A DNA stretch of 32,000 bases. Source: Nitrososphaeraceae archaeon. Its GTDB lineage: Archaea > Thermoproteota > Nitrososphaeria > Nitrososphaerales > Nitrososphaeraceae. Position numbers and translations under genes: made by a program. Location: positions 1 to 32,000 of the forward strand of contig JBIOZG010000011.1 in the NCBI GenBank assembly GCA_044870765.1, in the 5' to 3' direction. Under the pieces are notes generated by a model. That model saw only the letters and a list, made by a program, of their open reading frames with translations. It was not told the origin of the DNA and ran no database searches. Position 1 is the first letter of the stretch; each line of letters opens with the position of its first letter. Of the stretch, positions 4,477 to 25,331 are shown piece after piece.

Positions 4477-4601
4477 TATGTTTTAAAACTAAATTTGGGA
4501 ACAAAAAAGTGAACCCTGCATGCAATCAAGAAAAATAATTAGGCGTAAAACTAATAACTATATTGTGATTAAGACTATGTTAAATATTTGGGATCGTCAA
4601 C

Positions 4602-5048
4602 ATGAATTCTGATGAAGAACTTTATCTGGGAACTGCTGAATCCGAACATATTGAAATGTACCTAAAGGCCATTTGGCACATGCGTGAGAAAAATGAAAAA
4701 GTAAAAGTTAGTTCTATTGCTAAGATTTTGAATGTAAGGCAACCATCTGTTGTCCAGATGCTTCACAAGCTGAATGACGAAAATCTAGTTGACTATGAGA
4801 AAGGCAATGCTGAAATGAATTTGACAGCTGAAGGAGAAAAAATAGGAGAACAAATGATTAGGAATACGAGACTTTTGGAGGTCATGATGAAGGAAGCCTT
4901 AAAAATTGAAATCGATGAGGAGATGGTGTGTGGAATTGAACATCATATGAAGCATATATTTACCGATGCTTTATGTACCCTATTAAAACACCCTAGGTAC
5001 TGTCCACATGGTTATGATATTCCTGTGGGTAACTGTTGCAAAGAATAA
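4602..5048 (+). CDS. DtxR/MntR-family metal-dependent transcriptional repressor
   Basis: HIEMYLKAIWHM..VKVSSIAKILNVRQPSVVQMLHKLNDENLV is the DtxR-type wHTH. The dimerisation/metal-site region has ligand-type residues (EHHMKH, CPHG). At 148 aa it lacks the SH3-like third domain. Confidence 0.85.
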   Translation: MNSDEELYLGTAESEHIEMYLKAIWHMREKNEKVKVSSIAKILNVRQPSVVQMLHKLNDENLVDYEKGNAEMNLTAEGEKIGEQMIRNTRLLEVMMKEALKIEIDEEMVCGIEHHMKHIFTDALCTLLKHPRYCPHGYDIPVGNCCKE

Positions 5049-5119
5049 ATCATGATGTATATTTCTGACTGTATTTGAGATAATCAATGATTTGTTGATA
5101 TTTTTGAGAAAGATAGTGT

Positions 5120-6214
5120 ATGTCAATTGAATTCAATTACTCATGGGATATGTTTAGGGGTAATATAAGAAGAACGGGATCAACAGGAACTAAACCAGTG
5201 ACCAAACCCTCGCTTTACTGGACAATGGAGCTTGGTCCGATGGTGTCTTCTCCCGTTTATGAAGAAGGATTTCTATTTATTCTTACATTGACCGGACGTA
5301 TCTTTTGTTTGGATATATCAAAGAGAGAAATCAGATGGCATCATAATATTGGAATTCCTATGGTTTCATCGCCATTAATTTTGGGTGATATGATAGTATG
5401 TGCTACGTTTGGTAACTGGATACATGGTGATACTTCACAAGATAATATTGTTTTTGCACTTGATAAAGATGATGGGAGTATGATCTGGGAGCATCATGCC
5501 GGGGGAGACTTTTTTTCTTCACCATGTCCTATAGGAAAGAATATAATCTTGGGGTCCTTGGATCATAATTTGTATTGTATCAATTCGACTGGAGAAATAA
5601 TCTGGAACTATGAGACAAACGGTCAGATTTGGTCTTCTCCTTCTTGCCATGATGATATCATATATTTTGGATCAGATGATGGGTTCATATACTCTGTTGA
5701 TTCAGACGGATCGCTAAAATGGAAATCAAAATTAAATGGTAAAATAAGATCTTCTTCTCCTTGTCTTTATGGAGATTTAATTTTTATTGGCACATATAAT
5801 GGTGGAATATACTGTTTACACAATTTTAACGGTACTACCAATTGGTATAAAACTATAGAAAAACCAGTTTTATCATCTCCCCTTTTGGTAAAGGACAGAA
5901 TCATATTTGGAGCTTCTGATTGTAAACTTTATTGCTTCGATTTGAGAGGTTCTAAACTATGGGAATTTGAAACGGGTGGAAAAATCTGGTCGTCCCCGGC
6001 CAGCAGTGAAAATGATAAATTATTGTTTTTTGGAGGTTTGGATTCATATATTTATGGTATAAATTTCTATACAGGAAACCAGGAGTGGAAATTTCCCACG
6101 ATGGGTAGCATTGATTCTTCACCATGCATTGCAGATGGGATGTTGTTTGTCGGTAGCAGAGATGGTATATTGTATAGTTTTGAAAAACATATAGAACCAG
6201 CATATATCTCCTGA
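5120..6214 (+). CDS. PQQ-like (BamB-type) beta-propeller repeat protein, no signal peptide
   Basis: The N-terminal W-x-MFRGN-x-RRTG is typical of archaeal PQQ-like repeat proteins. About 8 repeats of the pattern ..G.I.SSP....D.I.FGS.DG.LY.....G...W follow. Confidence 0.75.
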   Translation: MSIEFNYSWDMFRGNIRRTGSTGTKPVTKPSLYWTMELGPMVSSPVYEEGFLFILTLTGRIFCLDISKREIRWHHNIGIPMVSSPLILGDMIVCATFGNWIHGDTSQDNIVFALDKDDGSMIWEHHAGGDFFSSPCPIGKNIILGSLDHNLYCINSTGEIIWNYETNGQIWSSPSCHDDIIYFGSDDGFIYSVDSDGSLKWKSKLNGKIRSSSPCLYGDLIFIGTYNGGIYCLHNFNGTTNWYKTIEKPVLSSPLLVKDRIIFGASDCKLYCFDLRGSKLWEFETGGKIWSSPASSENDKLLFFGGLDSYIYGINFYTGNQEWKFPTMGSIDSSPCIADGMLFVGSRDGILYSFEKHIEPAYIS

Positions 6215-6257
6215 GATTCAACGTATTTGATACCCATTGGAGGAATTCAAAAATGAA

Positions 6258-7538
6258 TTAATTAGTACTATTTTTCGCTGATATTTTGAAAATTGTTCCA
6301 TCGTGTTTGTAGTTTGTTAGAACGTAGAGATTGCCATCAGACCCTAATTGGAGATCTGTGATTATACCAAAATTTCTACCAAATATTATACTACCAGTTT
6401 CAGAATTTGTGTCTGCTGTCTTATCACTCAACGGACCAGAAAGAACTAGGTGTGTTCTAGTCTTGTCCAGTGGAAAATTGAAAATAGTGCCATTCTTAAC
6501 ACTACCTACAAATAGATTATCTTTGTATTTTGATCCAAGATTGTCAGTATGCAAGAATAGGACAGAAGTAGGTGCTATAGTGTCTATCCATATAAATTCG
6601 GGATCCCTGTAGGTGCCCTTTCCTCCAAAGGTTTCCAATTTTTCTGAATTAAAACCAGGTGTAGCTTTAGAAAATCCGATTACCTCTTTCCATCCGCTAT
6701 TAAATCCAGGTAGCACAAGATTAATTTCATCATCAGTGCTGCGACCATTTTCGGTTTCCCAGAGATTTCCTGTTAACGAGTCAAATCCAATACCAAAACT
6801 ATTTCGTATTCCATACGCATAATACTTATTCAATGGGTCTTCGTCTCCTAGAATTCCTTTATCAACAACGCCACCATCAAATGTAATTCTAAGTACACCA
6901 CCTCTTCCATCTGGTGGAGGACCATCCTTGTTATTCTGAGCTTTAGTAATAAAAGATTGATTTTGAACATAGTTTAAGTTACCAATGACAAGATATACGC
7001 TCTTCTTATCCGGGCCTATCTTTAATACTCCGCCATTATGTGAAGGTCCGGGTATCGTAGGAAGATCGAGGAGCAATTTTGGATTTACCAACTTACCATT
7101 ATCGTATTCATATCTATAAAGGCGATTTCCAAGAACCTCTCCTCCGTCAACATTCTGAGTTTCTGTGTAGAACAAGAATACATACCTGGGTTTATCTGAA
7201 ATTGCAATACCTAACAATCCTCTTTCACTTACATTTGCCACGTTGACGTCCAAAACGGTTCCAACTACAGTACTGTTTTTTATTTCCTTTACTATTCCCG
7301 TATTCTTCTCTATAACCAAGATATCATCAGGTCCTAGAAAATTCATCCCAGTTGGGAACTTAAACCCAGAAGCGTATTCTTGAATCTGTAACTGTGTATC
7401 GTTAACCATAGGCAATTCAAGACTCTTGTCCATTTGGCCAAATACATTGATATTTTGACTAGTTAAAACAATGAATGTAGCGCCGATAAATACAATGAAG
7501 GAAATTAAGTAATTATATTGTAGAGATGAGATTTGCAA
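6258..7538 (-). CDS. PQQ-dependent sugar (glucose/sorbosone) dehydrogenase family beta-propeller, membrane-anchored or secreted
   Basis: N-terminal TM/signal (YLISFIVFIGATFIVL). sGDH/YliI-like motifs are present: ERGLLGIA, GPSHNGGVLKIGPD, YAYGIRNSFGIGFD, ETENGRSTDDEINLVLPGFNSGW. Confidence 0.8.
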   Translation of the reverse strand: MQISSLQYNYLISFIVFIGATFIVLTSQNINVFGQMDKSLELPMVNDTQLQIQEYASGFKFPTGMNFLGPDDILVIEKNTGIVKEIKNSTVVGTVLDVNVANVSERGLLGIAISDKPRYVFLFYTETQNVDGGEVLGNRLYRYEYDNGKLVNPKLLLDLPTIPGPSHNGGVLKIGPDKKSVYLVIGNLNYVQNQSFITKAQNNKDGPPPDGRGGVLRITFDGGVVDKGILGDEDPLNKYYAYGIRNSFGIGFDSLTGNLWETENGRSTDDEINLVLPGFNSGWKEVIGFSKATPGFNSEKLETFGGKGTYRDPEFIWIDTIAPTSVLFLHTDNLGSKYKDNLFVGSVKNGTIFNFPLDKTRTHLVLSGPLSDKTADTNSETGSIIFGRNFGIITDLQLGSDGNLYVLTNYKHDGTIFKISAKNSTN

Positions 7539-7966
7539 GTAAAGACTTCAGGAAGTAACTGGATTGAATTATTTATTAACGTTTACTATTTGAGATTAAA
7601 TAAACTCGAAAAATTGCTATTCACCGGAATGTATAATTAAGATACAAGCAAGAGACGTTGATTTAATGACTTGGATCTAAATTGGCTCGTCTCAGAGGTA
7701 GGAAAATTAGACGAACTGTAAATCGGAGCTTACATATAACATCGCGTTAAGAGAAAGAAAATCATTTCTCAAAATCAATCATCAAAGTCAATGTATTTTA
7801 CAAAACTCTCTCATGTCTCGAGCGCTATGAATCAAGTCATTAACTAAAAATTAGGATTCTTATTATTGAATCACTAGGTGGTGTTTTAAATAACTTTCTT
7901 ATTTAATTACCATATGGAATAATTTTTGAAAATTCATATTAATCATTTTTCTTACCTTACAACTGT

Positions 7967-9244
7967 ATGAAAATTAAATCCAATTTTAGAATTCTTTTGC
8001 TTTTTGGGATATTCATGATATCGGGCATGGTATCCAACACAGCATTGGCACAAATCCCTGCTGCGACTGGGATAGGAGTAAAAATAGACACTCCAGTAGA
8101 TTCATCCAATTTGCCAGCCGGTGATTTAACCATATACGGTACGTCCTCAGATGATGATACTACTAACTGTCAAGTTTATGCTGACTGGAACGATCTAAAA
8201 CCTATGCAGAATGTTTCTGCTAATGGCCCTAAGGGGATCTCTGACTTTTCGAAATGGAGTTTTACATATACTAGCAATTATCATAATATAGTTGAAGGTC
8301 AGAATGAACTAACTTCAAAAATAACATGTTATGACAGCGGTCCAACTGCCTCCTCAAAGTCCTATTCTATTAATGTTACTGGAACAAAAACGGTGAGTAA
8401 AAACTCAAATGATACTCTTCAACAAACTAAAGAAGATACAGTTGCTGAATCTAGCAATATATTATCTGTAAAGAGTAACAATAACGATGACAACGATCTG
8501 AACGATGCAGCTCAACAATCTACTCAAGAAAACATCTCGAATACAGATGCTGAAGCTACAGATGTTGACACAGATGTTGAAGCTACAGATGTTGACACAG
8601 ATGCTGAAGCCACAAATATATTACCTGTGAAAAGCAACAATACCGACAGTACTCCTCAACAAACCAATGAAGATTCAGATAATGAAGCTAACAATATATT
8701 ACCAGTAGAGAATAACAAAAGCAACAGCGGTACTTATAAAATTCTCCCATTATATTCTGAATCCAATGAAAAATCAACAAAGTCGGCATCTTCCGAAGGT
8801 TCTGACGAAACAAACGTAGGTAGCACTGGTACCGTTGAGTCAGAAGATGGTTCTAATTCAAAAACAATTGACACTACCGACACTGGTACTTCTACTACCC
8901 TAGGTACACAAGAAGCTCAAACAGAAGCAGATACCTCCCCTATGAGTGGATCCAAAATTTCTGAAGGCACAGACCAATCAAAAGTTGATAGTAATACTAA
9001 CACCTTTTTTACATATGAACCTGACCTAGGAGAAGAGCAAGGATCAAGCAATAATCATGACCACACAATCGGCACTCCGGAATCTGATAATTCTATATCA
9101 AATTTTAATAACGAGGACAATTCGATTTTCGGACTAAAATTCAAACACTTTGATAAATCAAATGATGATAAGATGGAACAAAAGATAGAAAAATTAAACG
9201 ATAAAATTGCCAATCGGGTGCATTTGTTCGATCTGATTGGATAA
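7967..9244 (+). CDS. Secreted protein: signal peptide + Ig-like (Big_3-like) domain + long acidic Ser/Thr/Asn/Asp-rich tail
   Basis: Signal peptide with ALA|Q cleavage motif. Residues ~37-139 form a two-Cys domain about 45% identical by eye to residues ~89-192 of the 10325-12328 product. The tail contains tandem and dispersed repeats (NILxVxxNN x3). Confidence 0.7.
   Translation: MKIKSNFRILLLFGIFMISGMVSNTALAQIPAATGIGVKIDTPVDSSNLPAGDLTIYGTSSDDDTTNCQVYADWNDLKPMQNVSANGPKGISDFSKWSFTYTSNYHNIVEGQNELTSKITCYDSGPTASSKSYSINVTGTKTVSKNSNDTLQQTKEDTVAESSNILSVKSNNNDDNDLNDAAQQSTQENISNTDAEATDVDTDVEATDVDTDAEATNILPVKSNNTDSTPQQTNEDSDNEANNILPVENNKSNSGTYKILPLYSESNEKSTKSASSEGSDETNVGSTGTVESEDGSNSKTIDTTDTGTSTTLGTQEAQTEADTSPMSGSKISEGTDQSKVDSNTNTFFTYEPDLGEEQGSSNNHDHTIGTPESDNSISNFNNEDNSIFGLKFKHFDKSNDDKMEQKIEKLNDKIANRVHLFDLIG
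8543..8614 (+). repeat. 27-bp tandem repeat, 2.7 copies (encodes TDAEATDVD/TDVEATDVD)
   Basis: 8543-8569 and 8570-8596 differ by one base. 8597-8614 is a partial third copy. Confidence 0.85.
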
Positions 9245-12579: not shown

Positions 12580-13077
12580 TCAAGGAGATTTAGTAAATCT
12601 TTCAATAATATCCTTATGTTGTGGATATATTTCGGTCAGTTTTTTTCTGTTACCTATTTTCCAGTCTTTGTAGTCAAAACCAGGAGAAACGGTGCATCCT
12701 ACTAGTGAATATGATTTCTTTTTATTCACGGATGCTGCAAACCAACAATCTGACTTTACTGTTACTTGGAACTGCTCTCCGGCATCAAATTTTGGACCTA
12801 CAACAGATTTTTTCAATTTGCCTTTTGCATCTATTATATGAAGTGTTAAACTACTGCCTGAGTAGAAATGCCAAATTTCATCTGACTTCATAATATGAAA
12901 TGAGGCAAATTGTTTTCCAGTTAATAGATAATAAATTACTGTGCATGTAGACCTATGGCCAGTATATCCGGGTAAGTTAACGTTCCTATCAGATCTGTAT
13001 GTATTGGCATAATAACCACCTTCTGGATGTTTGTCAAGTTTGAGTTTCCTTATCCAAAATTTGGCAGGTTTATTCAA
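12580..13077 (-). CDS. Cupin-superfamily protein, DUF985-like
   Basis: The N-terminal LKLDKHPEGGYYANTYRS matches the DUF985 signature (L.L..HPEGG.Y.E.YRS). Later beta-strand-rich FHxxxSDEIWHFYxG and a LVGCTVSPGFDY motif follow. Confidence 0.8.
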   Translation of the reverse strand: MNKPAKFWIRKLKLDKHPEGGYYANTYRSDRNVNLPGYTGHRSTCTVIYYLLTGKQFASFHIMKSDEIWHFYSGSSLTLHIIDAKGKLKKSVVGPKFDAGEQFQVTVKSDCWFAASVNKKKSYSLVGCTVSPGFDYKDWKIGNRKKLTEIYPQHKDIIERFTKSP

Positions 13078-13414
13078 GATATGGGAAGGATTAACAGTTC
13101 TAACTTAATCCAGTATCTTTAGATTTTTTGACCAAGTCTCTTTTTCACGTTTACCTGTATTATACAATGAACTATAGGGTTTTTATCTCACACCGAAACT
13201 ATAGAATAAAAGGTTCAAAATTTAATTTTGTATCCGATCTCGATGGACCTCACATGATATTCTTCCGAACAATAGTCTATCTCATTATTCGGAATCAGGT
13301 TTTGATGAATTTATATATCTGTTTAAATCTCAGATCGTGTCATATTCCTTGATTTAAGGACAAGGAGATTCTTAAAGGAAAATATTATATAACTTAGATG
13401 TAGAATATAGACAA

Positions 13415-13732
13415 TTGATAATGGCAATACAAATTATATTACTAGCGTTTATGATTACACTCTCTGCTACTTTAACGCAAGTCACTTTTGCGGATGCAGG
13501 CGATCAAAGTAATTCAACTGGTAGCGGAGTATCTGATAAAAACAAAGATGTATTTGCGTTATTACAACTTGAAAAAGACGTATCAAAACACGAAGGTTCC
13601 TTGAAAGAGTTACATTCTGGTAGCAAGAGCCCATTCGATTTGTTAGGCGAAGTAAAAGATGAAGGAAAATTCACGCCAGAATCTGGGAGTTTTCTACCTG
13701 AATTCGATGATACCCAAAAAGATAACAAATGA
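13415..13732 (+). CDS. Small secreted hypothetical protein (start possibly ATG at 13421)
   Basis: Signal peptide (AIQIILLAFMITLSATLTQVTFA|DAG), then a charged low-complexity mature part. The antisense ORF 13504-13728 is less protein-like. Confidence 0.45.
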   Translation: MIMAIQIILLAFMITLSATLTQVTFADAGDQSNSTGSGVSDKNKDVFALLQLEKDVSKHEGSLKELHSGSKSPFDLLGEVKDEGKFTPESGSFLPEFDDTQKDNK

Positions 13733-14011
13733 TGAAAATATTTTTTCTTACCGGGAACATTGCATCAAATATCAGTATTTTATGTCATTTATGTTGTCTA
13801 GTGAAACTATCTATACCACGTTGCATCTAGTAGTATTTTTTCTTCTATATGCGAGACCCAGCACACCACAAATGATGTCCCATTTAGTCAACTGGCTCCT
13901 ATAATTGTCTGGACTCTAGTTTTTAAAAATATCTTTGTTACAGTAATTTCTAATAGAACCGGAAATCAGAAAACATTTATTAAATCAACATAAATCAAAG
14001 TCGTAATTATC

Positions 14012-15796
14012 TTGTCAATTAATAAATTTAGAAATATAGGCTATATTATAGGTTTTGTAACAATAGTTCTAGTTTTTTCATCAAATTTGATAATAAATCA
14101 AAATCATTTATTGGCCAACTCTCTGCTAAACAAGGGTTCTTTTGAACAATCAGATAGATATGAGATAATACCTATCAAGGATAAAGAGCGAGACGTCGGA
14201 ATATCGAGCCTTACTTCTAATCCAAATCTTGAGGAACTGAAAAACAACCTGTGCAAAAGTAATGTTTTCGACAATCTAGGAATTCCTCTGTGTAATCCTT
14301 TAGACAATAAGAAAGAAAGATCTACCAATGATAATAATGATGGTAATGATCATACCAGCAAGAAAGAAGAAAAGAAACTCTTAGAACAACAACAAGAACA
14401 ACAGCATAAAGAAGAAGAAGACAAGGCTAATGAGCAAAACAACAACAATGATAATAATGATGGTAATGTAGACAAGAGCCTTGGAATTGCAGGATTAAAC
14501 TTGAATATTGAAAGTAAAGGAGCCGGCTTGAACAAGAAAATAGACAAATTGAAGGATAAGATATTCGGAGAAGATAATCAGTACTTGTCGGAACAACAAC
14601 AAGGAAAGAGATTTAATGATAAAAACGGCAAAAACGAAAACAATGATGGCGAGAACCTTGACATTTCTGGATTAGATCTGAAAGTTCAGAAAATTAATGC
14701 TAACTTGGAAAAGAAAATTGAAAAATTAAAAGACAAAATTGAAAATGACAAGGATAACCAACGCCTGATAGATCAGAGACAAGAGACCGAGGCTAAAGAC
14801 GATGATGAGGATGGTGATAAAGATGATGGTGATACCAAAGAAGGAGATGGTGAAACTTATGAAGGCTATCGTTTCAATGGAGATAATGACAATGGTAATG
14901 ACAATGGTAATGACAATGGTAATGACAATAATAACTTTAATTTTGCTGCAGCAGGTGATTTTGGATGTTCTAAAAATACACAAAACACTGTAGCAAATAT
15001 GGAGAATAAAGATCCCGAATTAGTTCTAGCGTTGGGAGATCTCTCATATCATAGTACTGCCGACTGTTGGTTTGACACTATGAGCCCTCTTAAAGGCAAG
15101 ATGATGATTACGTTGGGATATCATGATATTAAAGATGGAGAATCAAAAATGAATCAGTATGTAAAGGGCTTTGAATTGGACAAACCATACTATTCTTATG
15201 ATTACAAACATGTTCATTTCCTTGTCATGGCTTCATTGTCCGATTATAAAGAAGGCTCCGAGCAATACAATTTTATCAAACAAGATCTTGAAAAGGCATC
15301 TCAAAATGAAGATACTAATTGGATAATTGTAAGTACCTATAAACCACTTTATTCATCACCCTCAGAACATCCGGCAGAAGAATCGTTAAGGGATACTTAC
15401 AATCCACTTTTCGAAAAATATGGGGTTGATCTAGTATTAAATGGACATAACCACAATTATCAGAGAACTTATCCTTTGACATACAATCCCAATGAAAGTG
15501 CAAAGCCAACAACGACTAGTGAACTTAGTACAGGATACAACAGAGGTAATGATGGTATCGTTTTTACTACTGTGGGAACAGGAGGAGTAAACTTCTATTC
15601 CTTGGAGGGTAAAAATCCTTATGTTGCTAACCAATTTGCGGGGAAATTCGGGTTTTTGGATATAGATATTAGTAACGGAAATCCTCACACAAAGTTGACT
15701 GGAACCTTCTATGATAATAAGGGCAGTGAAATAGCAGATGAATTTACAATTGAAAAAGAAATAAAAAATAAAAAGAGCGATGTATTTTACAGTTAA
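14012..15796 (+). CDS. Secreted/anchored purple-acid-phosphatase-like metallophosphoesterase with a ~300-aa Asn/Asp/Lys-rich spacer (TTG start)
   Basis: N-terminal anchor (IGYIIGFVTIVLVF). The C-terminal domain has the calcineurin-like motif series AAAGDFGCS, LALGDLSYH, TLGYHD, VLNGHNHNYQR. Confidence 0.8.
   Translation: MSINKFRNIGYIIGFVTIVLVFSSNLIINQNHLLANSLLNKGSFEQSDRYEIIPIKDKERDVGISSLTSNPNLEELKNNLCKSNVFDNLGIPLCNPLDNKKERSTNDNNDGNDHTSKKEEKKLLEQQQEQQHKEEEDKANEQNNNNDNNDGNVDKSLGIAGLNLNIESKGAGLNKKIDKLKDKIFGEDNQYLSEQQQGKRFNDKNGKNENNDGENLDISGLDLKVQKINANLEKKIEKLKDKIENDKDNQRLIDQRQETEAKDDDEDGDKDDGDTKEGDGETYEGYRFNGDNDNGNDNGNDNGNDNNNFNFAAAGDFGCSKNTQNTVANMENKDPELVLALGDLSYHSTADCWFDTMSPLKGKMMITLGYHDIKDGESKMNQYVKGFELDKPYYSYDYKHVHFLVMASLSDYKEGSEQYNFIKQDLEKASQNEDTNWIIVSTYKPLYSSPSEHPAEESLRDTYNPLFEKYGVDLVLNGHNHNYQRTYPLTYNPNESAKPTTTSELSTGYNRGNDGIVFTTVGTGGVNFYSLEGKNPYVANQFAGKFGFLDIDISNGNPHTKLTGTFYDNKGSEIADEFTIEKEIKNKKSDVFYS
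14885..14926 (+). repeat. 12-bp tandem repeat aatgacaatggt x3.5 (NDNG)n
   Basis: Direct reading shows three perfect 12-bp units followed by a partial one. It generates spurious antisense ORFs (VITIVITIV). Confidence 0.85.
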
Positions 15797-19547: not shown

Positions 19548-19811
19548 TCACTTTATTGTGAACGTTATCTCTAGACCTTTGTTTTTTGAATACCTATACC
19601 TAAATGTGTTGTTAGACGTTATGGGAAAACTGCTCAATTGATCTTGCTTGCACATGGGACAACTATATTCTACCTCAGATATTTCTGACAATTCTTCCAG
19701 ATATTTCTTGTTAATACAAGTCACGGCCCACAGACACTGGTCACATAATAGAAATATTCTTTCGCCAATTTTATGACTCAATGTATTCATAAGAGGTTCA
19801 GTCCCAACCAT
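19548..19811 (-). CDS. Small zinc-ribbon-like hypothetical protein
   Basis: Cys pairs C-x2-C (CDQC) and C-x2-C (CPMC) are separated by ~25 aa. An AAATAATA TATA-like element lies ~21-34 nt upstream on the minus strand. Confidence 0.5.
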   Translation of the reverse strand: MVGTEPLMNTLSHKIGERIFLLCDQCLWAVTCINKKYLEELSEISEVEYSCPMCKQDQLSSFPITSNNTFRYRYSKNKGLEITFTIK

Positions 19812-20486
19812 CAGATTACGTGACTATCTTGGGTATTATTTAGCTTTCTCTTGAAATTTTTATGATTGCCCTGATACAGAATCCCAAGTCGATTTCCAGT
19901 CTTGATTTAAAAGTATTCGTTTATTTTCTACTTTTCATGGAATAAATATCCAAAAAATGGAAGGAGCATCTCATACGACGAAATTAAATATCAAGTAAAA
20001 ATCGCGCAGATTTTTCTCAATTTTGGATATAGTGTAAAAATCTTTTTACTAGATTTTACTGCTAAATTGTCAATTGAAATGAAAATGAAGTTAGTGCGAA
20101 CTCTTAATCCTCTGCTGATATTAGACCAAGAAATTCACTTGCTTGATTAAAGGTAGTTACTTGCGGGAAGTATATATCTACTATTGCTTCCGTGCAGTCG
20201 AATCGCTGAATTACTCTGTACTAGTAACCATACTTATTTCCTTATCTTGAATTCCAGAATGATCTATCTGTCTGTCTCTACGATAATGTCCTTTATCACC
20301 GAACGCTTCATTTAAGGGCCGCTAGTCTGTGTGTATCAGCATCATTTAGACTTCATGCAGCCAAGAAATTTAATTCTGCCCCCTAGACTAATCTCCTCAT
20401 TTTTCTACATTATTGCCAATAGATTCATGCATCATTCGATTGGTGTACCACAATACTATTATCATGCTGACTACTAAAAATTCAAA

Positions 20487-21398
20487 ATGAAAAGAATTTT
20501 ACATTTTTCGATACCGCTAATGTTATTGCTAGTTGGATCTATATTGAATGCAAACAATGTATTAGGCCATACTTTTTCTGGAGATGAAAGTGCATCTTTC
20601 CTGGCCGGTGTTGAAATGACAAAAATAGAATTAAAAATGGCAGCAGACCAAGCTGTCTCTAATGCTACTAATGCCAAAGAACATGCTGACCATTTAACTG
20701 AGCACATTACAGCAAACGATACAAAAGAAATTAAGGAAAGAAATTCGCGAGTGGCTGACGAACTTAATAAAACTTTGACTGATTTTGTTAATGCGATCGA
20801 ATCCAGTTCTCCAGCACAATCTGATGTTAATACCAAGGCTAGTAATATCAATGATATACTGTCTGAAGTTGTGAGCGCCAGAATAGATAAAGAACAACTG
20901 GATAATGTTACCGTTAAGGCTCTAGTTGTAAATGATTTGGTAGGGGAAGGTCTAGAGCATTACGGTAGTGCACTCGGTATGGCGGAAGAGGGTCATGATG
21001 AGAACGAAAGTAATACCGCTTCCTCAGAGCATACAGAAAACCAGAATAATGAAACAGCGAGCATTGTCGATGTGGCTGACTATCAAAGTGCGCAAGCAGC
21101 TGTCTCTCGAGCAATAGAACTATACAATGAAATTAAACCCGCGGGTGACTCGAACTCCAGTCAGTTGGCAGACTCTTTGAATACACTAAAAAGCAAGATA
21201 GATAGCAAGAGTGCCTTTGATGAAATTGACAAAGTAGTGGATGATAAAATTTCGCCTTTACTTAGTGACATGTTCAAGTTAAAGTTGGCAGAGGAAGAAG
21301 AGCATTCTGAAGGTGATGATCATGGTCAAGAAGATGATCATGGGGAAGAAGGACATGGTTCGTCCCAAAATGAAACTCACGACGCAAATACTGATTAA
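20487..21398 (+). CDS. Secreted helical protein with His/Asp/Glu-rich C-terminal tail (paralogue A)
   Basis: Signal peptide MKRILHFSIPLMLLLVGSILNANNVLG|HTF. Helical heptad-like sequence and an ADYQSAQAAVSRAIELYNE module. Tail EEEHSEGDDHGQEDDHGEEGHGSSQNETHD. Paralogous to the 22034-23122 product. Confidence 0.7.
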   Translation: MKRILHFSIPLMLLLVGSILNANNVLGHTFSGDESASFLAGVEMTKIELKMAADQAVSNATNAKEHADHLTEHITANDTKEIKERNSRVADELNKTLTDFVNAIESSSPAQSDVNTKASNINDILSEVVSARIDKEQLDNVTVKALVVNDLVGEGLEHYGSALGMAEEGHDENESNTASSEHTENQNNETASIVDVADYQSAQAAVSRAIELYNEIKPAGDSNSSQLADSLNTLKSKIDSKSAFDEIDKVVDDKISPLLSDMFKLKLAEEEEHSEGDDHGQEDDHGEEGHGSSQNETHDANTD

Positions 21399-21916
21399 TG
21401 AATGCATTCCCTCACTTCCACATTATTTTGTTGCTTGGTTTTGTTCTGATCCTAAAGGTTCCTTTGAGTACAAGTGGCTTAATTTTTGAAAATAATCCTT
21501 TTTATGGATTAAACAATGATGCAATTAGATCTATCGAATCCATAACAGATGACAATTTGATAAGGGTCAAATTGGAATATGCCCCTTCAGCAATTCAAAT
21601 TGGTTCTCCAGAATTTTTTAGAGCAACTTTATTTCATAATGAAAAAAATGAAATAGTTTTGCATGCAGACACAGATATAGCAATATCTAAAAATGGTAAG
21701 GAACTTTATAAAGCATCAAGTGAATTTTCTCAGCCCTTCGTTCACACTCCAAATGGAATAGTACTTTCATCTTACAAATTTCCAGATTCAGGACAATATA
21801 TTATTACAGCGAAAATATTAGGAATAAACTTCATGCCGGTTAATCCAAAACAAGTTGATTTTGTAGTTAATGTTACTGAATCAAATGACAAATACAACAT
21901 AGAGATAGGCAAATGA
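21398..21916 (+). CDS. Signal-anchored hypothetical protein, predicted beta-sandwich
   Basis: Its ATG overlaps the upstream TAA (TAATG). It has an N-terminal hydrophobic helix (HIILLLGFVLILKV), then alternating hydrophobic/polar strand patterns (IRVKLEYAP, FFRATLFH, IVLHADTDIAI, YIITAKILGINF, VDFVVNV). Confidence 0.65.
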   Translation: MNAFPHFHIILLLGFVLILKVPLSTSGLIFENNPFYGLNNDAIRSIESITDDNLIRVKLEYAPSAIQIGSPEFFRATLFHNEKNEIVLHADTDIAISKNGKELYKASSEFSQPFVHTPNGIVLSSYKFPDSGQYIITAKILGINFMPVNPKQVDFVVNVTESNDKYNIEIGK

Positions 21917-22033
21917 ATATGTCACGGTCAAAGACTCATGACACTGATGCAACCGTTTTTTATGGCGCTGGAGCCCTTTTCTAAAATCTATTAGTTTTAA
22001 ATTACTTGCTCATCATTATGGGAGTATAGTTAA

Positions 22034-23122
22034 ATGAAGCGAAATTTAGGTGGAACTCAAAAAAAGCTGATTCCTTTTTTAGCTATTTGCTTTGGCCTGT
22101 TTTTTTCGAATATCGTGTATAATTCTGATGATGCAAAAGTATTGGGACATCTTTTCACCAGAGACCAAACAGGAACATTCGTTTCCATTATAGACCAAGT
22201 GCAAACAGAATTAGAGCTAGTCGCAGCAAACTTGGTAAACAATAACGTCTCACTTGCTGAAAATCATGCATCAAAGGCTTCTTCACTCTTACCAAGAGTA
22301 ATTGGAGAAATAGGAGAAGACAACCCTCAACTGGTAGGCGAGCTGATGAGATCTGTGTTTGGCATGGAAAACATATCATCAACTACATACAGTAAATCGC
22401 AAAATATCAGTACACTTGTCAATAATCTAAATGAAAAACTAGATAATGCAAAAATTATTAGGATGGCACAGGTGCAACCAACTTCTAACTTTTTGGACAA
22501 AGTTACAAACCTTCTAGGAGGTTTATTTGGCGGGGACACCGGAGAACCGTCAAGCGAACATGTTCAGAATTCAAGGATAGAAGCATTAGCTTTTGCAGAG
22601 CTTATGGACGCAGTGTTGGTAAATTATGGTAAAGCGTACAATGTAGGATTTGATATGACAAATATGTCAAATATGATAATGGCGCCCAGCAACAGCAACA
22701 CTGGTTCTATAGCCATAAGCAATACTGTGAAAAGTAATAATTCTGATACAGGTAACACGAATATCAACATGAACATACATATGAACACGAATATGAACAC
22801 GAATATGGATTCGATGAATAATTCGACCAGTCCTATGCCGGAACACATGGACGAAATGGATAACGGTTACCAATTGAGTCACACTGCGGACTATCAGACT
22901 GCCCAATTACTGGCAAAAAGGGGACAAGATTTCTTTAATTCTGATCTCAGACACATGGCAAATAATAACAAAGTAATTTTTGTCAATAACTTGGAAAAAG
23001 GTCTGAAGCACCTAAACGATTCAATTGAAAACAAAGGGCCTCCTACAGAAATTATGATGATAGTGCATACTGAAATTCATCCAAACCTGTTGGAAGGCTT
23101 TAATTTGGAGTTGCGTAAATAA
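22034..23122 (+). CDS. Secreted helical protein with Met/Asn-rich insert (paralogue B)
   Basis: Signal peptide ..LIPFLAICFGLFFSNIVYNSDDAKVLG|HLF. The first helices align with paralogue A. It has the Met-rich tract DMTNMSNMIM...NMNIHMNTNMNTNMDSM...PMPEHMDEMD and an ADYQTAQLLAKRGQDFFN module. Confidence 0.7.
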   Translation: MKRNLGGTQKKLIPFLAICFGLFFSNIVYNSDDAKVLGHLFTRDQTGTFVSIIDQVQTELELVAANLVNNNVSLAENHASKASSLLPRVIGEIGEDNPQLVGELMRSVFGMENISSTTYSKSQNISTLVNNLNEKLDNAKIIRMAQVQPTSNFLDKVTNLLGGLFGGDTGEPSSEHVQNSRIEALAFAELMDAVLVNYGKAYNVGFDMTNMSNMIMAPSNSNTGSIAISNTVKSNNSDTGNTNINMNIHMNTNMNTNMDSMNNSTSPMPEHMDEMDNGYQLSHTADYQTAQLLAKRGQDFFNSDLRHMANNNKVIFVNNLEKGLKHLNDSIENKGPPTEIMMIVHTEIHPNLLEGFNLELRK

Positions 23123-23123
23123 A

Positions 23124-23429
23124 ATGAATAATATGTTTTCTGATGAGAATCTTGGTAAGGCCATCGATTTTGTAAACCCTAAGGTCAACAGCTGGGCAAA
23201 GGACTTGTTTGGAAGCTTTGAGCAATTGAATTTGACTAGACCTCAGAAGGAGCTAATTCAGATTTTGACAGCTGAAACTCTCCTGTACAATACCGTTATG
23301 TCAAATGAAGAAATCATCGCAATCTTGTCTGACATAATACGAAATATAGCAACCCGCCACGCATATGGAATGTTCCTTGACTGGGGTAAGAGAGCCTCAT
23401 TATTCAAGGCACCTGATAAAGAAAAATGA
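23124..23429 (+). CDS. Small cytoplasmic helical hypothetical protein, translationally coupled to paralogue B
   Basis: The ATG lies 1 nt after the upstream TAA. There is no signal peptide. The segment LTRPQKELIQILTAETLLYN faintly recalls AhpD/CMD-like helical domains, but no Cys/His active-site motif is present. Confidence 0.55.
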   Translation: MNNMFSDENLGKAIDFVNPKVNSWAKDLFGSFEQLNLTRPQKELIQILTAETLLYNTVMSNEEIIAILSDIIRNIATRHAYGMFLDWGKRASLFKAPDKEK

Positions 23430-23638
23430 ACAAATTATTTCCTTTGAAAACAGTGTTGTTGTTATGTAACCGCGTTTTGGGCATACAAGTTGTTTGCTGA
23501 TGTAGTAAAAACAAGCATCAAAATTGTTGCTCCAATTATGATTAATTCTTTATTCATGAGCTTTAGATGCTCAATTTTTACTTAAGGATTATAGATTCAT
23601 CATACATTTTCGGTTAGTCTTAAAAAATTTCAAATACA

Positions 23639-24085
23639 ATGGATTCAAAGATATCATCTATGGCTCTAGGACAAAAACTCTTTGAAGAAGTTGGTAAAAT
23701 AACGAGTTTCAAAGTGACAAAAGTGCATCCACTTGAAGGAGTGACAACAGAAGTCAGCTTTATGTCAGACATCAAAGGTATAGAAAGATTTCCAAGTGGC
23801 AAAAATCTTGCTTCTGGTACGATGACTAGATATCCACACGGAATAATCGATGCGGTTTGGCACGGTAATTTAACGACCCAAAATGCGCAGGAGTTTATGT
23901 GGTGGGCGCATGAGAAAAGCAAAGTTACTGAAGATGGTAAAATCAGAGGGCTAAATCTCGTGACAGGTTTTACGAACTCACAAAAATTAACTTGGATGAA
24001 CAATATAATCATCGTAGTGGAACTAGATGGTTCTGTGTACTCGGAAGAATTCACTGCAACTGCTTATGAATGGAATTCCACATGA
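23639..24085 (+). CDS. Hypothetical cytoplasmic protein (148 aa)
   Basis: Balanced, strand-rich composition (KITSFKVTKVHPLEGVTTEVSFMSDIKG..). It is preferred over the fully overlapping antisense ORF 23620-24054, which is Cys/Ser/Phe-rich and low-complexity. Confidence 0.55.
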   Translation: MDSKISSMALGQKLFEEVGKITSFKVTKVHPLEGVTTEVSFMSDIKGIERFPSGKNLASGTMTRYPHGIIDAVWHGNLTTQNAQEFMWWAHEKSKVTEDGKIRGLNLVTGFTNSQKLTWMNNIIIVVELDGSVYSEEFTATAYEWNST

Positions 24086-24275
24086 TAACTTTCAGCGAGT
24101 CCTTTATTATGCAATAAATACAATTGTAGTTTATTTATTGTTAGACCCAGTGGTTTGTGAATCATTTTTGACATAATTTTTGGATACGGAAGTGGTAATG
24201 GATATTAAAAAATGAATACGGAATAAATTTAATTTCACCACTAGAAACTGTCTTGGTTGGACAATTGCACTTCAG

Positions 24276-24409
24276 TTAACGGTTCTTTAAAGGAATATTT
24301 TGTACCTCTATTATAGCATTAATGTTTGAAATTCCTTCCATTTGAATTAGCAAAAGAGTTTATTCAAACTTTAAAAATAAAAATGTAATAGGCTTTTAAA
24401 GACCGTTAA
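24276..24409. repeat. ~134-bp AT-rich unit bounded by 17-18-bp imperfect inverted repeats
   Basis: TTAACGGTTCTTTAAAGG (24276-24293) matches the reverse complement of CTTTTAAAGACCGTTAA (24393-24409) with one indel. A nested inverted repeat TTTGAAT..ATTCAAA lies inside. Confidence 0.5.
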
Positions 24410-24426
24410 TGTATAGTTGCAGCAAT

Positions 24427-24560
24427 AAAATTAACTGTAGACTTCTGTCACAAATTAACTGTAGACTTATACATTAAAAACATTGGCGTGTAGACTTCCG
24501 CCACAAATTAATAGTAGATACACAGTAGACACACAAAACATTGACATTAAGCAGTAGTGA
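24427..24560. repeat. Iteron-like array: six GTAGAC/GTAGAT/GTAGTG motifs within degenerate ~24-52-bp direct repeats
   Basis: AAATTAACTGTAGACTT occurs twice in tandem (24427-24444 region and 24451-24468). Further copies are CACAAATTAATAGTAGATAC and CAGTAGACAC. AAAACATTGNC occurs twice. GTAGAY motifs start at 24437, 24461, 24490, 24514, 24525 and 24554. Confidence 0.6.
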
Positions 24561-24660
24561 TACAATGCATTGTCAACTTCCAATCTTATATAGCAACTAA
24601 TCTTTCGACTATACTGAATTGTTATTTTTCAGAGTTTGTGTACTCATAATGGCTTTTTAC

Positions 24661-24696
24661 ATATGACGACTTTTGCAAATATGACGACTTTTGCAG
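24661..24696 (-). repeat. Perfect 18-bp tandem duplication inside the integrase remnant
   Basis: atatgacgacttttgcaa / atatgacgacttttgcag. It encodes AKVVIFAKVVI on the minus strand. Confidence 0.9.
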
Positions 24697-25331
24697 CAAT
24701 GATGCCGCCTTTATCATTATTAATAGGAATAATGTGTCCATCTAAGGGAATCCCATGTTCAAAGTCTAATTCCTGAAGAGACCATTGTATAGATTATTGC
24801 TTTTATTCTCCTGTCAGGATATTCACAAATTTTTTGAATTTCTTCTAAGGTTGGAGCTCGGTCGTTGGCTGCCATACTTGCACGGGGCAATCCTCTTGTT
24901 ATCCTTTTCCAAGGTATCACAATATCAGACATTTCACAAAATAATTTCAGTGGCTTCACAAAATTTTTTAGCGTTGATGCTGTAATCTCTCCAGTCTCCA
25001 CGCGATTCTTCTGGAATTGCAAGAACTCTACTATTTGATTAACGACCTAGCTTGAAGGTGGTTCGTTTCTTGATTTATTAACAAAGTTATTGCAGCGTTC
25101 ACCAAGGTCTAACTTGATATCAAAATTTATGAAATCAAAAAATCTTTTGAGTCTTCTTTCGTAGTACTTTCTTGTCAGTTCATTCCTTATTGAGTATTTG
25201 AACATGTTATACGGATTTGAAAAGTCTAGCCCATCTTGATGTTGCGTTCTTAGCATGTTTCTATAAGTATATGAAAGGGGGACTAAATAAAGGGACAAGA
25301 TTGATTTGGGGCCAGTGGGATTTGAACCCAC
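24661..25331 (-). pseudogene. Tyrosine recombinase (phage/plasmid-type integrase) pseudogene, truncated after the first catalytic Arg region
   Basis: The N-terminal core-binding-like region (YYERRLKRFFDF) and the start of the catalytic domain (RAPTLEEIQKICEYPDRRIKAIIYTMVSSGIRL) lie in one frame. That frame is broken by TAG (25047-25049) and TGA (24759-24761), then by a frameshift (..TWDSLRWTH / IIPINNDKGGIIAAKVV). The remaining ~60% of a normal integrase is absent. Confidence 0.7.

Follow-up and report, generated by a model that had tools for sequence, protein, structure and literature searches.

The stretch analysed here (the window) comprises 32 kb of contig JBIOZG010000011.1 from a Nitrososphaeraceae archaeon and is AT-rich, with a GC content of about 36%. 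It carries a cluster of four open reading frames (ORFs) on one strand, which a first-pass annotation made from the sequence had described as a candidate secreted metal-handling module of four genes. All positions below are those of the window and refer to its forward strand unless stated otherwise. Gene 1 (20487–21398) encodes a predicted secreted all-alpha protein of 303 amino acids (aa), gene 2 (21398–21916) a predicted secreted Ig-like beta-sandwich of 172 aa, and gene 3 (22034–23122) a predicted secreted all-alpha paralogue of gene 1 with 362 aa, which has the canonical form of the family; gene 4 (23124–23429) is a 101-aa ORF in strain-specific DNA. Positions and lengths of the four ORFs were as first described, and both tight junctions were present, namely a TAATG overlap at 21396–21400 and TAA-A-ATG at 23120–23126. 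Metal-related genes in the window are those of an FTR1 permease, of a DtxR regulator beside it, of an Fe/Mn superoxide dismutase (SOD) and of a CDF exporter, the last about 1.3 kb upstream of gene 1.

The window was compared with 50 related loci from species-representative genomes and metagenomes. In this comparison the conserved unit consisted of three genes and not of four, a homologue of gene 4 being found in none of the 50 loci. The order gene 1-gene 2-gene 3 was found again in about 14 loci, in which genes 1 and 2 overlapped or lay at most 53 nucleotides (nt) apart and genes 2 and 3 were separated by 47–165 nt. In more distant Nitrososphaera genomes, the family genes were single or in tandem, and gene 2 homologues stood elsewhere in the same island. 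The block common to the closest relatives (83–94% DNA identity) started about 470 bp 5′ of gene 1 and ended at 23129–23146, a few bases beyond the stop codon of gene 3, and the next ~2.2 kb were strain-specific. Gene 4 was re-encountered solely on a contig of the same strain and had no family match in Pfam, NCBIfam, PHROGs or PDB sequence and profile searches; shuffling its segment produced an ORF of 101 aa or longer in 18 of 500 cases (3.6%). Gene 4 is ruled out as a member of the module, because none of the 50 loci has it and the block common to the relatives ends just behind gene 3. The data thus support a conserved unit made up of genes 1, 2 and 3 together with a putative promoter and the box upstream of it, which are described below.

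Strain-variable DNA flanks the trio, at 23130–25300 in the window and at 3925–8164 and 12637–15290 in the close relative L001. The variable segment of the window holds gene 4 and a 148-aa ORFan (23639–24085). The corresponding place in L001 is taken by DUF72 fragments, a gene for a response regulator and a small cupredoxin-like ORF, and L001 has an additional 4.2 kb between the CDF gene and the trio.

The helical family of genes 1 and 3

Genes 1 and 3 are paralogous, as had been proposed: BLASTP aligned their products at 24% identity (E 1e-10), and profile-profile comparison matched them over the entire mature length (99.4%, E 2.9e-21). Both have a signal peptide ending in VLG that is followed by H-x-F, and both contain ADYQ[ST]AQ. 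No named family was found for any of the four proteins of the cluster in Pfam, NCBIfam and PDB sequence and profile searches, genes 1 and 3 having neither a Pfam or NCBIfam model nor a PDB relative by sequence or profile. An exhaustive profile search of 1.84 billion representatives assigned 625 clusters at 50% identity to the helical family at E<1e-3, with 373 of them below 1e-10; this is thus a large and fast-evolving family. Homologues of genes 1, 2 and 3 occur in the hundreds and, where a taxon is stated, come from Nitrososphaeraceae or Nitrososphaera metagenome-assembled genomes (MAGs). None of these homologues bears a functional name, and the cluster look-up returned only "hypothetical protein" from MAGs. 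The trio and its box were also present on a 1.5-kb contig labelled "bacterium isolate ES-bin-123" (L049), which is most likely a mis-binned archaeal contig, because all other occurrences are in Nitrososphaeraceae.

The AlphaFold2 model of gene 1 is all-alpha, with nine helices, a core predicted local distance difference test (pLDDT) score above 90 and a predicted template modelling score of 0.72; a loop (aa 168–188) and the acidic/His tail (aa 269–303, pLDDT <50) are modelled as disordered. Imelysin/EfeO (Peptidase_M75) was considered as a parent family and rejected: gene 1, gene 3 and 95 family members gave no Pfam hit to it, the PDB profile search returned nothing, and Foldseek matched EfeM (7q1g) only at E=2 with TM scores of 0.24–0.27.

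The most conserved residue of the family is the His that stands right behind the signal-peptide cleavage site (A/V-Y/F-A/G↓H-x-F). In gene 1 the signal peptide spans aa 1–27, and predicted cleavage would make His28 (codon 20568–20570) the first residue of the mature protein; in gene 3 the predicted first residue is His39 (codon 22148–22150). We counted the cleavage context in 105 representatives that have a complete N terminus and share at most 50% identity. His occupied position +1 in 105/105 and Phe position +3 in 101/105, and the preceding residues (A/V at −3, Y/F at −2 and A/G at −1) formed a canonical signal peptidase context. A hydrophobic presequence was present in 102/105, and the mature part was Cys-free in 98/105. 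Given the canonical context and the uniform His at +1, the mature proteins of the helical family are predicted to begin with H-x-F.

Conservation along the rest of the protein was calculated from 150 family representatives and is given in gene 1 numbering. His28 (99%) and Phe30 (96%) are joined by His66 (97%), Glu84 (91%), Tyr159 (99%), Tyr199 within ADYQ (91%) and, near the C terminus, H-x3-H-P, with 88% and 80% for its two His. Gene 1 retains H66, E84, Y159 and Y199 and has lost the C-terminal H-x3-H (D252 and S256 in its place); gene 3 retains H78, E95, Y198, ADYQTAQ and HTEIHPN (aa 345–351, 23066–23086). As judged by conservation only, H66, E84 and Y159 are candidate second ligands beside the N-terminal His.

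The histidine brace is defined by a His that signal-peptide cleavage exposes at the N terminus. To our knowledge, the known N-terminal-His copper proteins of the histidine-brace type are all beta-sandwiches. Genes 1 and 3 have His as predicted mature residue 1 and do not have the beta-sandwich fold. As the gene 1 model is all-alpha with its nine helices, the protein is no member of the LPMO, CopC, YcnI or Ang families by descent and is at most a functional analogue of them. An N-terminal His behind a signal peptide chelates Cu2+ whatever the fold, as described for several unrelated bacterial folds, and Kd values of about 60–70 nM for Cu2+ were reported for Ang-1 and Ang-2 (PMC12537917).

Both paralogues also carry segments of unusual composition, and residue counts bore out the tail and the insert noted in the first-pass annotation. 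The C-terminal tail of gene 1 (aa 268–303, 21288–21395) has 5 His and 15 Asp+Glu in 36 aa and is predicted to be disordered; its H279 is invariant within the subfamily. Gene 3 has a Met/Asn-rich insert (aa 204–284, 22643–22885) with 12 Met and 18 Asn in 81 aa, located at the variable insertion site of the family between helices 6 and 7, where inserts have a median length of 49 aa and a maximum of 178 aa. Family-wide, Met makes up 11.6% of the inserts versus 2.2% of the core, and 4 or more Met occur in 92 of 129 inserts; the loop of gene 1 is acidic with His in place of Met-rich. The inserts are variable, Asn/Ser-rich and sequon-rich (8 NxS/T each). One member, P0429, has a plastocyanin/azurin-type domain at the same insertion site (Pfam Copper-bind, E 1.3e-10). 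Other members carry at this site or at the C terminus families that are encoded as separate genes in the CopC-CopD island of related loci (cl8 and the YtkA-like cl3 and cl4), thus forming fusions.

CopC-CopD neighbourhood and promoter box

In the related loci, the dominant neighbour of the helical family is a CopC-CopD-beta-propeller fusion of ~1000 aa (CopCD), which lies at most 6 kb from a family member in 31 of the 50 loci. In L032, L033 and L046 it stands directly downstream on the same strand with a gap of 18–23 nt. Other genes that recur nearby encode an ArsR/MarR-type double-helix-turn-helix regulator, which forms a pair with a small membrane protein, as well as an NHL propeller, an RTX calcium-binding protein and several small exported proteins.

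Gene 2 belongs to this island as well. Its family (176 hits, mean column identity 76%) has the invariant motifs ENNPFYG, which is the predicted mature N terminus, PEFF, LHADTD and VHTPNG, with two invariant His among them. The AlphaFold2 model of gene 2 (pLDDT 74.6) is Ig-like, in agreement with the beta-sandwich patterns noted at first. The signal anchor that had been ascribed to the protein is doubtful, since the family consensus reads VNA↓LIVENNPFYG and no other transmembrane segment occurs; gene 2 rather looks like a cleaved secreted protein. The model gave generic Ig-domain structural matches only, and gene 2 had no Pfam match and no PDB relative; its similarity to cl4 was weak (hhalign 65%, E 6e-5), and cl4 itself matched PF13115 (YtkA-like) only at E 0.017. 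Because gene 2 homologues stand beside cl2-CopCD without an adjacent helical gene in L040, L044 and L048, it counts as an island component independently of the helical genes. A fusion of gene 2 to the helical domain, which would be Rosetta-stone evidence, was looked for and not found in the data.

Two further island families, cl2 (L002:4213–4935) and cl3 (L002:5177–5719), have homologues in 27–28 of the 50 loci and encode small exported proteins with a predicted His right after the signal peptide (SFA↓HTSK... and ISG↓HFFG...) and a C-terminal transmembrane anchor. The cl2 gene is divergent beside CopCD, comparable to YcnI beside YcnJ in B. subtilis, and does not match Pfam DUF1775. The cl3 family shows a relationship (hhalign 98%) to cl4, which is weakly YtkA-like. 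In Nitrososphaera loci, the next gene on the same strand after the helical-family gene is a conserved one of ~610 aa (L034:6472–8292, L040:11286–13154 and L048:11007–12827), which lacks a Pfam match and may be a further island component.

The diversity of the family and of its neighbours could also be read in a way that involves no metal, with genes 1 and 3 encoding fast-evolving envelope or surface proteins for adhesion, matrix or envelope remodelling that share no more than their regulation with the copper island, and with structural roles for the His and Tyr residues. In keeping with this, the 625 clusters are expanded in one archaeal family and have variable, sequon-rich inserts, RTX-type surface proteins and NHL propellers are among the other island products, and Foldseek found no structural relative. 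However, a structural role hardly accounts for a residue that is fixed at 99–100% precisely at the cleavage site, which is the known N-terminal metal-chelation signature, and the fusion to a blue-copper domain and the operon links to CopCD do not accord with a metal-free role. We therefore rate it as the least probable of the readings weighed here.

A link to copper also comes from the promoter region. Alignment of the regions upstream of gene 1 orthologues showed a conserved element, TTCGATTGRTGTACCAYAAT, abutting a TATA-like sequence. In the window, this box reads TTCGATTGGTGTACCA (TTC-N6-TGWACYA; 20435–20450), starts at −52 and ends 36 nt before the ATG of gene 1. Directly downstream of it lies the TATA-like ATACTATTATCA (20453–20464), which was read from the sequence, is kept in the orthologous upstream regions and is inferred to be the core promoter of the gene 1-gene 2 unit. 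A candidate operator sequence for the ArsR-type regulator of the island is TTCGATTGRTGTACCA.

For N. viennensis, Reyes et al. (2020, PMC7785015) reported the motif TTCSGSMTTTGWACYANT at −35 to −70 of genes that copper limitation induces. TTC-N6-TGWACYA represents the outer blocks and the spacing of TTCSGSMTTTGWACYANT, whereas the central 6 nt differ (GATTGR versus SGSMTT). A search with the 18-nt motif at up to 3 mismatches gave chance-level matches only, and the likeness surfaced after the orthologous upstream regions had been aligned. In GC-rich Nitrososphaera loci, box instances read TTCGGGCTTTGTACYA or TTCGGCATTTGTACTA and equal the published consensus, and in AT-rich lineages the centre is GATTGR. 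From this comparison of sequences, the box appears to be a low-GC form of the N. viennensis copper-limitation motif.

Counts of the box support its association with the island. The window has 1 copy (0.3 expected by chance), and 49 non-redundant genome loci (618 kb) contain 142 copies versus 8.2 expected and a shuffle maximum of 13, a 17-fold enrichment that lies mostly ahead of family and CopCD-island genes; 80 FTR1 loci (487 kb) contain 7 copies, which is chance level. Gene-proximal boxes precede helical-family genes (41), divergent cl2/CopCD promoters (28), the cl6-ArsR operon (12), cl8 (8) and cl11 (6). The box was present at 39 of the 70 family genes that had enough upstream sequence, with a modal distance to the start codon of 36 nt. 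Palindromic double boxes (about TGGTACATTCGNCGAATGTACYA) occurred at L014:7581–7603, L025:1473–1495, L044:6086–6108, L047:14–36 and L050:12900–12922. Their symmetry suggests a dimeric regulator, and the single boxes ahead of helical-family genes may be one-and-a-half sites.

In N. viennensis, a 25-gene CopC/D cluster includes 15 genes induced by copper limitation, and most genes of the CopC/D neighbourhood rose by a log2 fold change of 1.4–2.8 under this condition (PMC7785015). The composition of the island described here matches that cluster, and the gene order CopCD-cl6-ArsR-cl4-cl3-family gene (L034, L040 and L044) corresponds to NVIE_014300 down to NVIE_014250. By gene order, NVIE_014250, whose log2 fold change under copper limitation is +2.64, is predicted to be a member of the helical family.

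Ammonia-oxidising archaea are heavily dependent on copper, which serves their ammonia monooxygenase and plastocyanin-based electron transport. They have to acquire it at femtomolar free concentrations, and we know of no previous candidates for this task other than CopC/D fusions and unnamed "exported proteins" from one transcriptome. With slightly better than even confidence, we propose that genes 1–3 of these soil ammonia-oxidising archaea (Nitrososphaeraceae) constitute an extracytoplasmic module for copper capture or hand-off which is regulated by copper limitation. The data support the core of the original idea, namely an uncharacterised extracytoplasmic metal-handling module whose two helical paralogues are akin to the FTR1 ectodomain. 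The metal had been left at Fe and/or Cu; for the free-standing proteins this now resolves towards Cu, because of the invariant mature N-terminal His, the Met-rich inserts, the cupredoxin insertion, the CopC-CopD linkage and the copper-limitation-type box.

A scheme can be drawn that builds on what the sequences show, namely the anatomy, homology, conservation, loop composition, synteny and box enrichment; cleavage at the His, copper as the metal, the set of ligands, the way in which copper is handed on and a copper-responsive box in the window's lineage are predictions. Genes 1 and 3 would be exported via their Sec signal peptides, and cleavage would turn the invariant His into residue 1. Its free amino group and imidazole would chelate Cu(II) by the mono- or bis-histidine-brace principle of CopC, YcnI, LPMOs and the "anglerases", with partner ligands drawn from H66, E84, Y159 and Y199 and, in gene 3, also from H-x3-H. 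The flexible Met-rich loop of gene 3 may serve as a low-affinity antenna for Cu(I), and the acidic/His loop and tail of gene 1 as one for Cu(II). The beta-sandwich of gene 2, with its invariant His in HADTD and HTPNG, would be a co-expressed partner. Copper might then be passed on to the CopC domain of the CopC-CopD importer, which is encoded next door in most relatives. Transcription of genes 1 and 2 would start at the promoter whose upstream box is the putative family-wide island operator, the equivalent motif in N. viennensis marking genes induced by copper limitation.

The same proteins could instead buffer excess copper or protect the envelope in the manner of PcoE, SilE, CopM or CusF-type proteins, without feeding CopCD. 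Met-rich and acidic/His-rich disordered segments are generally known from low-affinity periplasmic copper sponges (PcoE/SilE), a CDF metal exporter is encoded about 1.3 kb away from the trio of the window, with the Fe/Mn SOD nearby, and CopC/CopD were first described as resistance genes (PMC7785015). However, the N. viennensis motif marks genes induced by limitation and not by excess of copper, and such CopC-CopD fusions are regarded as importers (YcnJ; PMC7785015). The CDF neighbourhood, moreover, is lineage-specific, with variable DNA between the CDF gene and the trio in close relatives. Sequestration or tolerance is thus unlikely in our estimate.

Several observations weigh against copper capture under copper-limitation control. 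The window contains none of the island genes, CopCD included; in this lineage the trio is separated from CopCD and sits between the CDF exporter/SOD region and variable DNA. The box of the window's lineage mismatches the published 18-mer consensus at 6 of 18 positions, and the published motif itself lacks experimental validation as a copper operator. Upstream of gene 3 there is no copper box: as the spacer between genes 2 and 3 (21917–22033) offers a T-run (about 21950–21957) and a TATA-like GTTTTAAATTAC (21994–22005) in its stead, gene 3 may be transcribed from its own promoter or by read-through. The N. viennensis orthologue was identified by gene order only, and Foldseek found no structural relative. 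Finally, homology to the ectodomain of an iron permease, together with the conserved His, two Tyr and Glu, could also suit an Fe(III) site.

The FTR1 ectodomain and iron

The FTR1 permease, whose gene starts at 2074, has a 520-aa N-terminal ectodomain. Pairwise alignment of FTR1 with genes 1 and 3 was not significant (E about 1–2), and a narrow profile reached only 37%. With a broad hidden Markov model built from 130 diverse family members, aa 52–162 of FTR1 scored 32 bits versus a maximum of 8.4 in 2000 composition-matched shuffles. For profile-profile comparison, 64 distinct FTR1 ectodomains were gathered from 80 metagenome loci; the family matched this profile at 98.4% (E 9e-15, 239 columns) and, without the signal peptide and limited to FTR1 aa 35–250, at 98.1% (E 1.2e-13; 193–239 columns across both runs). 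The alignment to the FTR1 ectodomain is thus statistically significant, and these two lines of evidence indicate that the first ~250 residues of the ectodomain (aa 35–250, 2176–2823) are a divergent, full-length copy of the helical domain. The FTR1 copy retains the equivalents of H66, Y159 and Y199 (AFEHA, ...FY and VDYENA), whereas its mature N terminus is AQN, TQN or EQN and not His, and it lacks the H-x3-H and the Met-rich insert.

The resemblance to FTR1 had been drawn from two motifs. The first of them (AFEHA) lies within the significant match. The second, SDYSSAEKYATTAYLDNFE (SDYSSAEKY...), had been taken as the counterpart of ADYQ and did not hold, since it reached 3–10% probability and the true aligned counterpart is VDYENA at about aa 183. 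The distal ectodomain was for the same low probability rejected as a further copy of the helical domain. It consists of a duplication of a different module: FTR1 aa 250–514 (2824–3615) is internally duplicated, with aa 250–390 and aa 390–514 matching each other at 97.5% in hhalign, and the duplicated module bears an AYLDxFExxExPL motif and has no significant relation to the helical family.

Regulatory sequence at the FTR1 gene is of another type. A DtxR/IdeR-type palindrome, TTAGGTAAGCCTAA, lies at 1996–2009 in the FTR1 promoter, just downstream of the TATA box, and recurs at about −75 in 56 of the 72 FTR1 upstream regions. The DtxR gene (4602–5048) adjoins FTR1, and TTAGGTAAGCCTAA is likely an iron-responsive operator of archaeal FTR1. 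Genes 1 and 3 have no such DtxR-type box in their upstream regions.

This homology raises the question of iron, namely that genes 1 and 3 bind Fe(III) by His, two Tyr and Glu, as in transferrin/FbpA-type sites, and pass it to FTR1 as analogues of EfeO/EfeM with EfeU. The FTR1 copy, homologous over aa 35–250 (98%, E 1e-13), retains exactly the equivalents of H66, Y159 and Y199; FTR1, DtxR and the trio lie within one 32-kb region; and EfeM is among the Foldseek matches, though not significantly (E=2). However, FTR1 was found in 0 of the 50 loci that carry the helical family, and there is no Pfam Peptidase_M75/imelysin match. The traits that distinguish the free proteins from the FTR1 copy, that is, the N-terminal His, the Met-rich loop, H-x3-H and the cupredoxin insertion, are copper-type. 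The promoters of FTR1 and of the trio are separate, in that FTR1 loci are at chance level for the family box and carry the DtxR-type box, which is missing 5′ of genes 1 and 3. Iron handling is accordingly improbable in our view and ranks somewhat below sequestration.

Coming back to copper capture, a wider conjecture can be attached to it, which is tentative and which we hold to be possible but doubtful. Genes 1 and 3 might represent the first all-alpha N-terminal-His copper family, acting as Cys-free scavengers with a Cu(II) brace and a Met-rich Cu(I) antenna that replace small-molecule chalkophores and feed CopCD and, through it, ammonia monooxygenase and the copper respiratory chain; the fold would have been recruited separately, and brace-less, into the iron-regulated FTR1.

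Related systems and further observations

Extracytoplasmic metallochaperones or metal-capture proteins with an N-terminal His are already known as a function class, and the neighbourhood was noticed in one transcriptome study. Within the literature and databases searched, the family, its helical fold, the combination of an N-terminal His with a Met-rich loop, the relationship to the FTR1 ectodomain and the extension of the promoter box across Nitrososphaeraceae appear to be undescribed.

The closest functional parallels are CopC and YcnI. Like these, genes 1 and 3 are predicted to be exported with His as mature residue 1, the family stands beside a CopC-CopD importer and a metal-type helix-turn-helix regulator, and the proteins would be expected to pick up Cu(II) extracytoplasmically and to exchange it with this importer. 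In contrast to the beta-sandwiches CopC and YcnI, genes 1 and 3 are all-alpha in the model, share no sequence or structural similarity with them, have no membrane anchor and carry Met-rich or acidic loops; copper binding is putative here. Ang-1 and Ang-2, described under the term signal-strapping (Franco Cairo et al. 2025, PMC12537917), likewise have an invariant His right behind the signal peptide, occur both as a free domain and appended to a metal permease, and are proposed to capture metal for a transporter. They are bacterial Ig-like beta-sandwiches on HupE/UreJ permeases, whereas the domain here is helical, archaeal and appended to FTR1, where it has lost the N-terminal His.

EfeO and EfeM, the partners of EfeU, resemble genes 1 and 3 as all-alpha, multi-helix extracytoplasmic proteins, with metal binding being putative in the present family, whose tie to FTR1 is the homology of the ectodomain. 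They differ in that the family genes are not syntenic with FTR1, that the predicted regulators are different and that the 95 members searched lack an M75 hit. Met-rich Cu(I) segments in CopA/PcoA/CueO loops, Ctr1 Mets motifs and PcoE/SilE are disordered M-x-M or M-x-x-M stretches outside the cytoplasm, as is the predicted loop of gene 3; here, however, the segment is an insert inside a folded helical domain with an N-terminal His, and it was assigned by composition alone.

The copper-limitation cluster of N. viennensis shares with the related loci the CopC/D fusions, an ArsR regulator, an RTX Ca-binding protein, "exported proteins of unknown function" and an equal promoter-box architecture at −35 to −70 (PMC7785015). 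It differs from the window's lineage, in which the trio is detached from CopCD and the box centre reads GATTGR and not SGSMTT. The protein family, the N-terminal His, the Met-rich loop and the FTR1 homology were not defined in that study (PMC7785015).

One such exported protein of unknown function now becomes part of a large unannotated family with a testable signature, comprising the predicted mature N-terminal His, the Met-rich loop and the conserved His/Tyr/Glu. Similarly, the published copper-limitation motif is extended to a family-wide promoter box across GC contents, and the link of the family to CopCD proves to be conserved. If the proteins bind copper, the N-terminal-His principle would extend to a helical fold and to archaea, concrete targets would be available for the copper limitation of soil nitrification, and one fold would serve two metal systems under two predicted regulators, one acting at the copper box and the other at the DtxR box.

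Upstream of the trio, an 87-aa ORF on the reverse strand (19548–19811) has two Cys pairs (CDQC ... CPMC) and is zinc-ribbon-like. It has no family match and keeps its place ahead of the trio in three close relatives (L001, L004 and L006).

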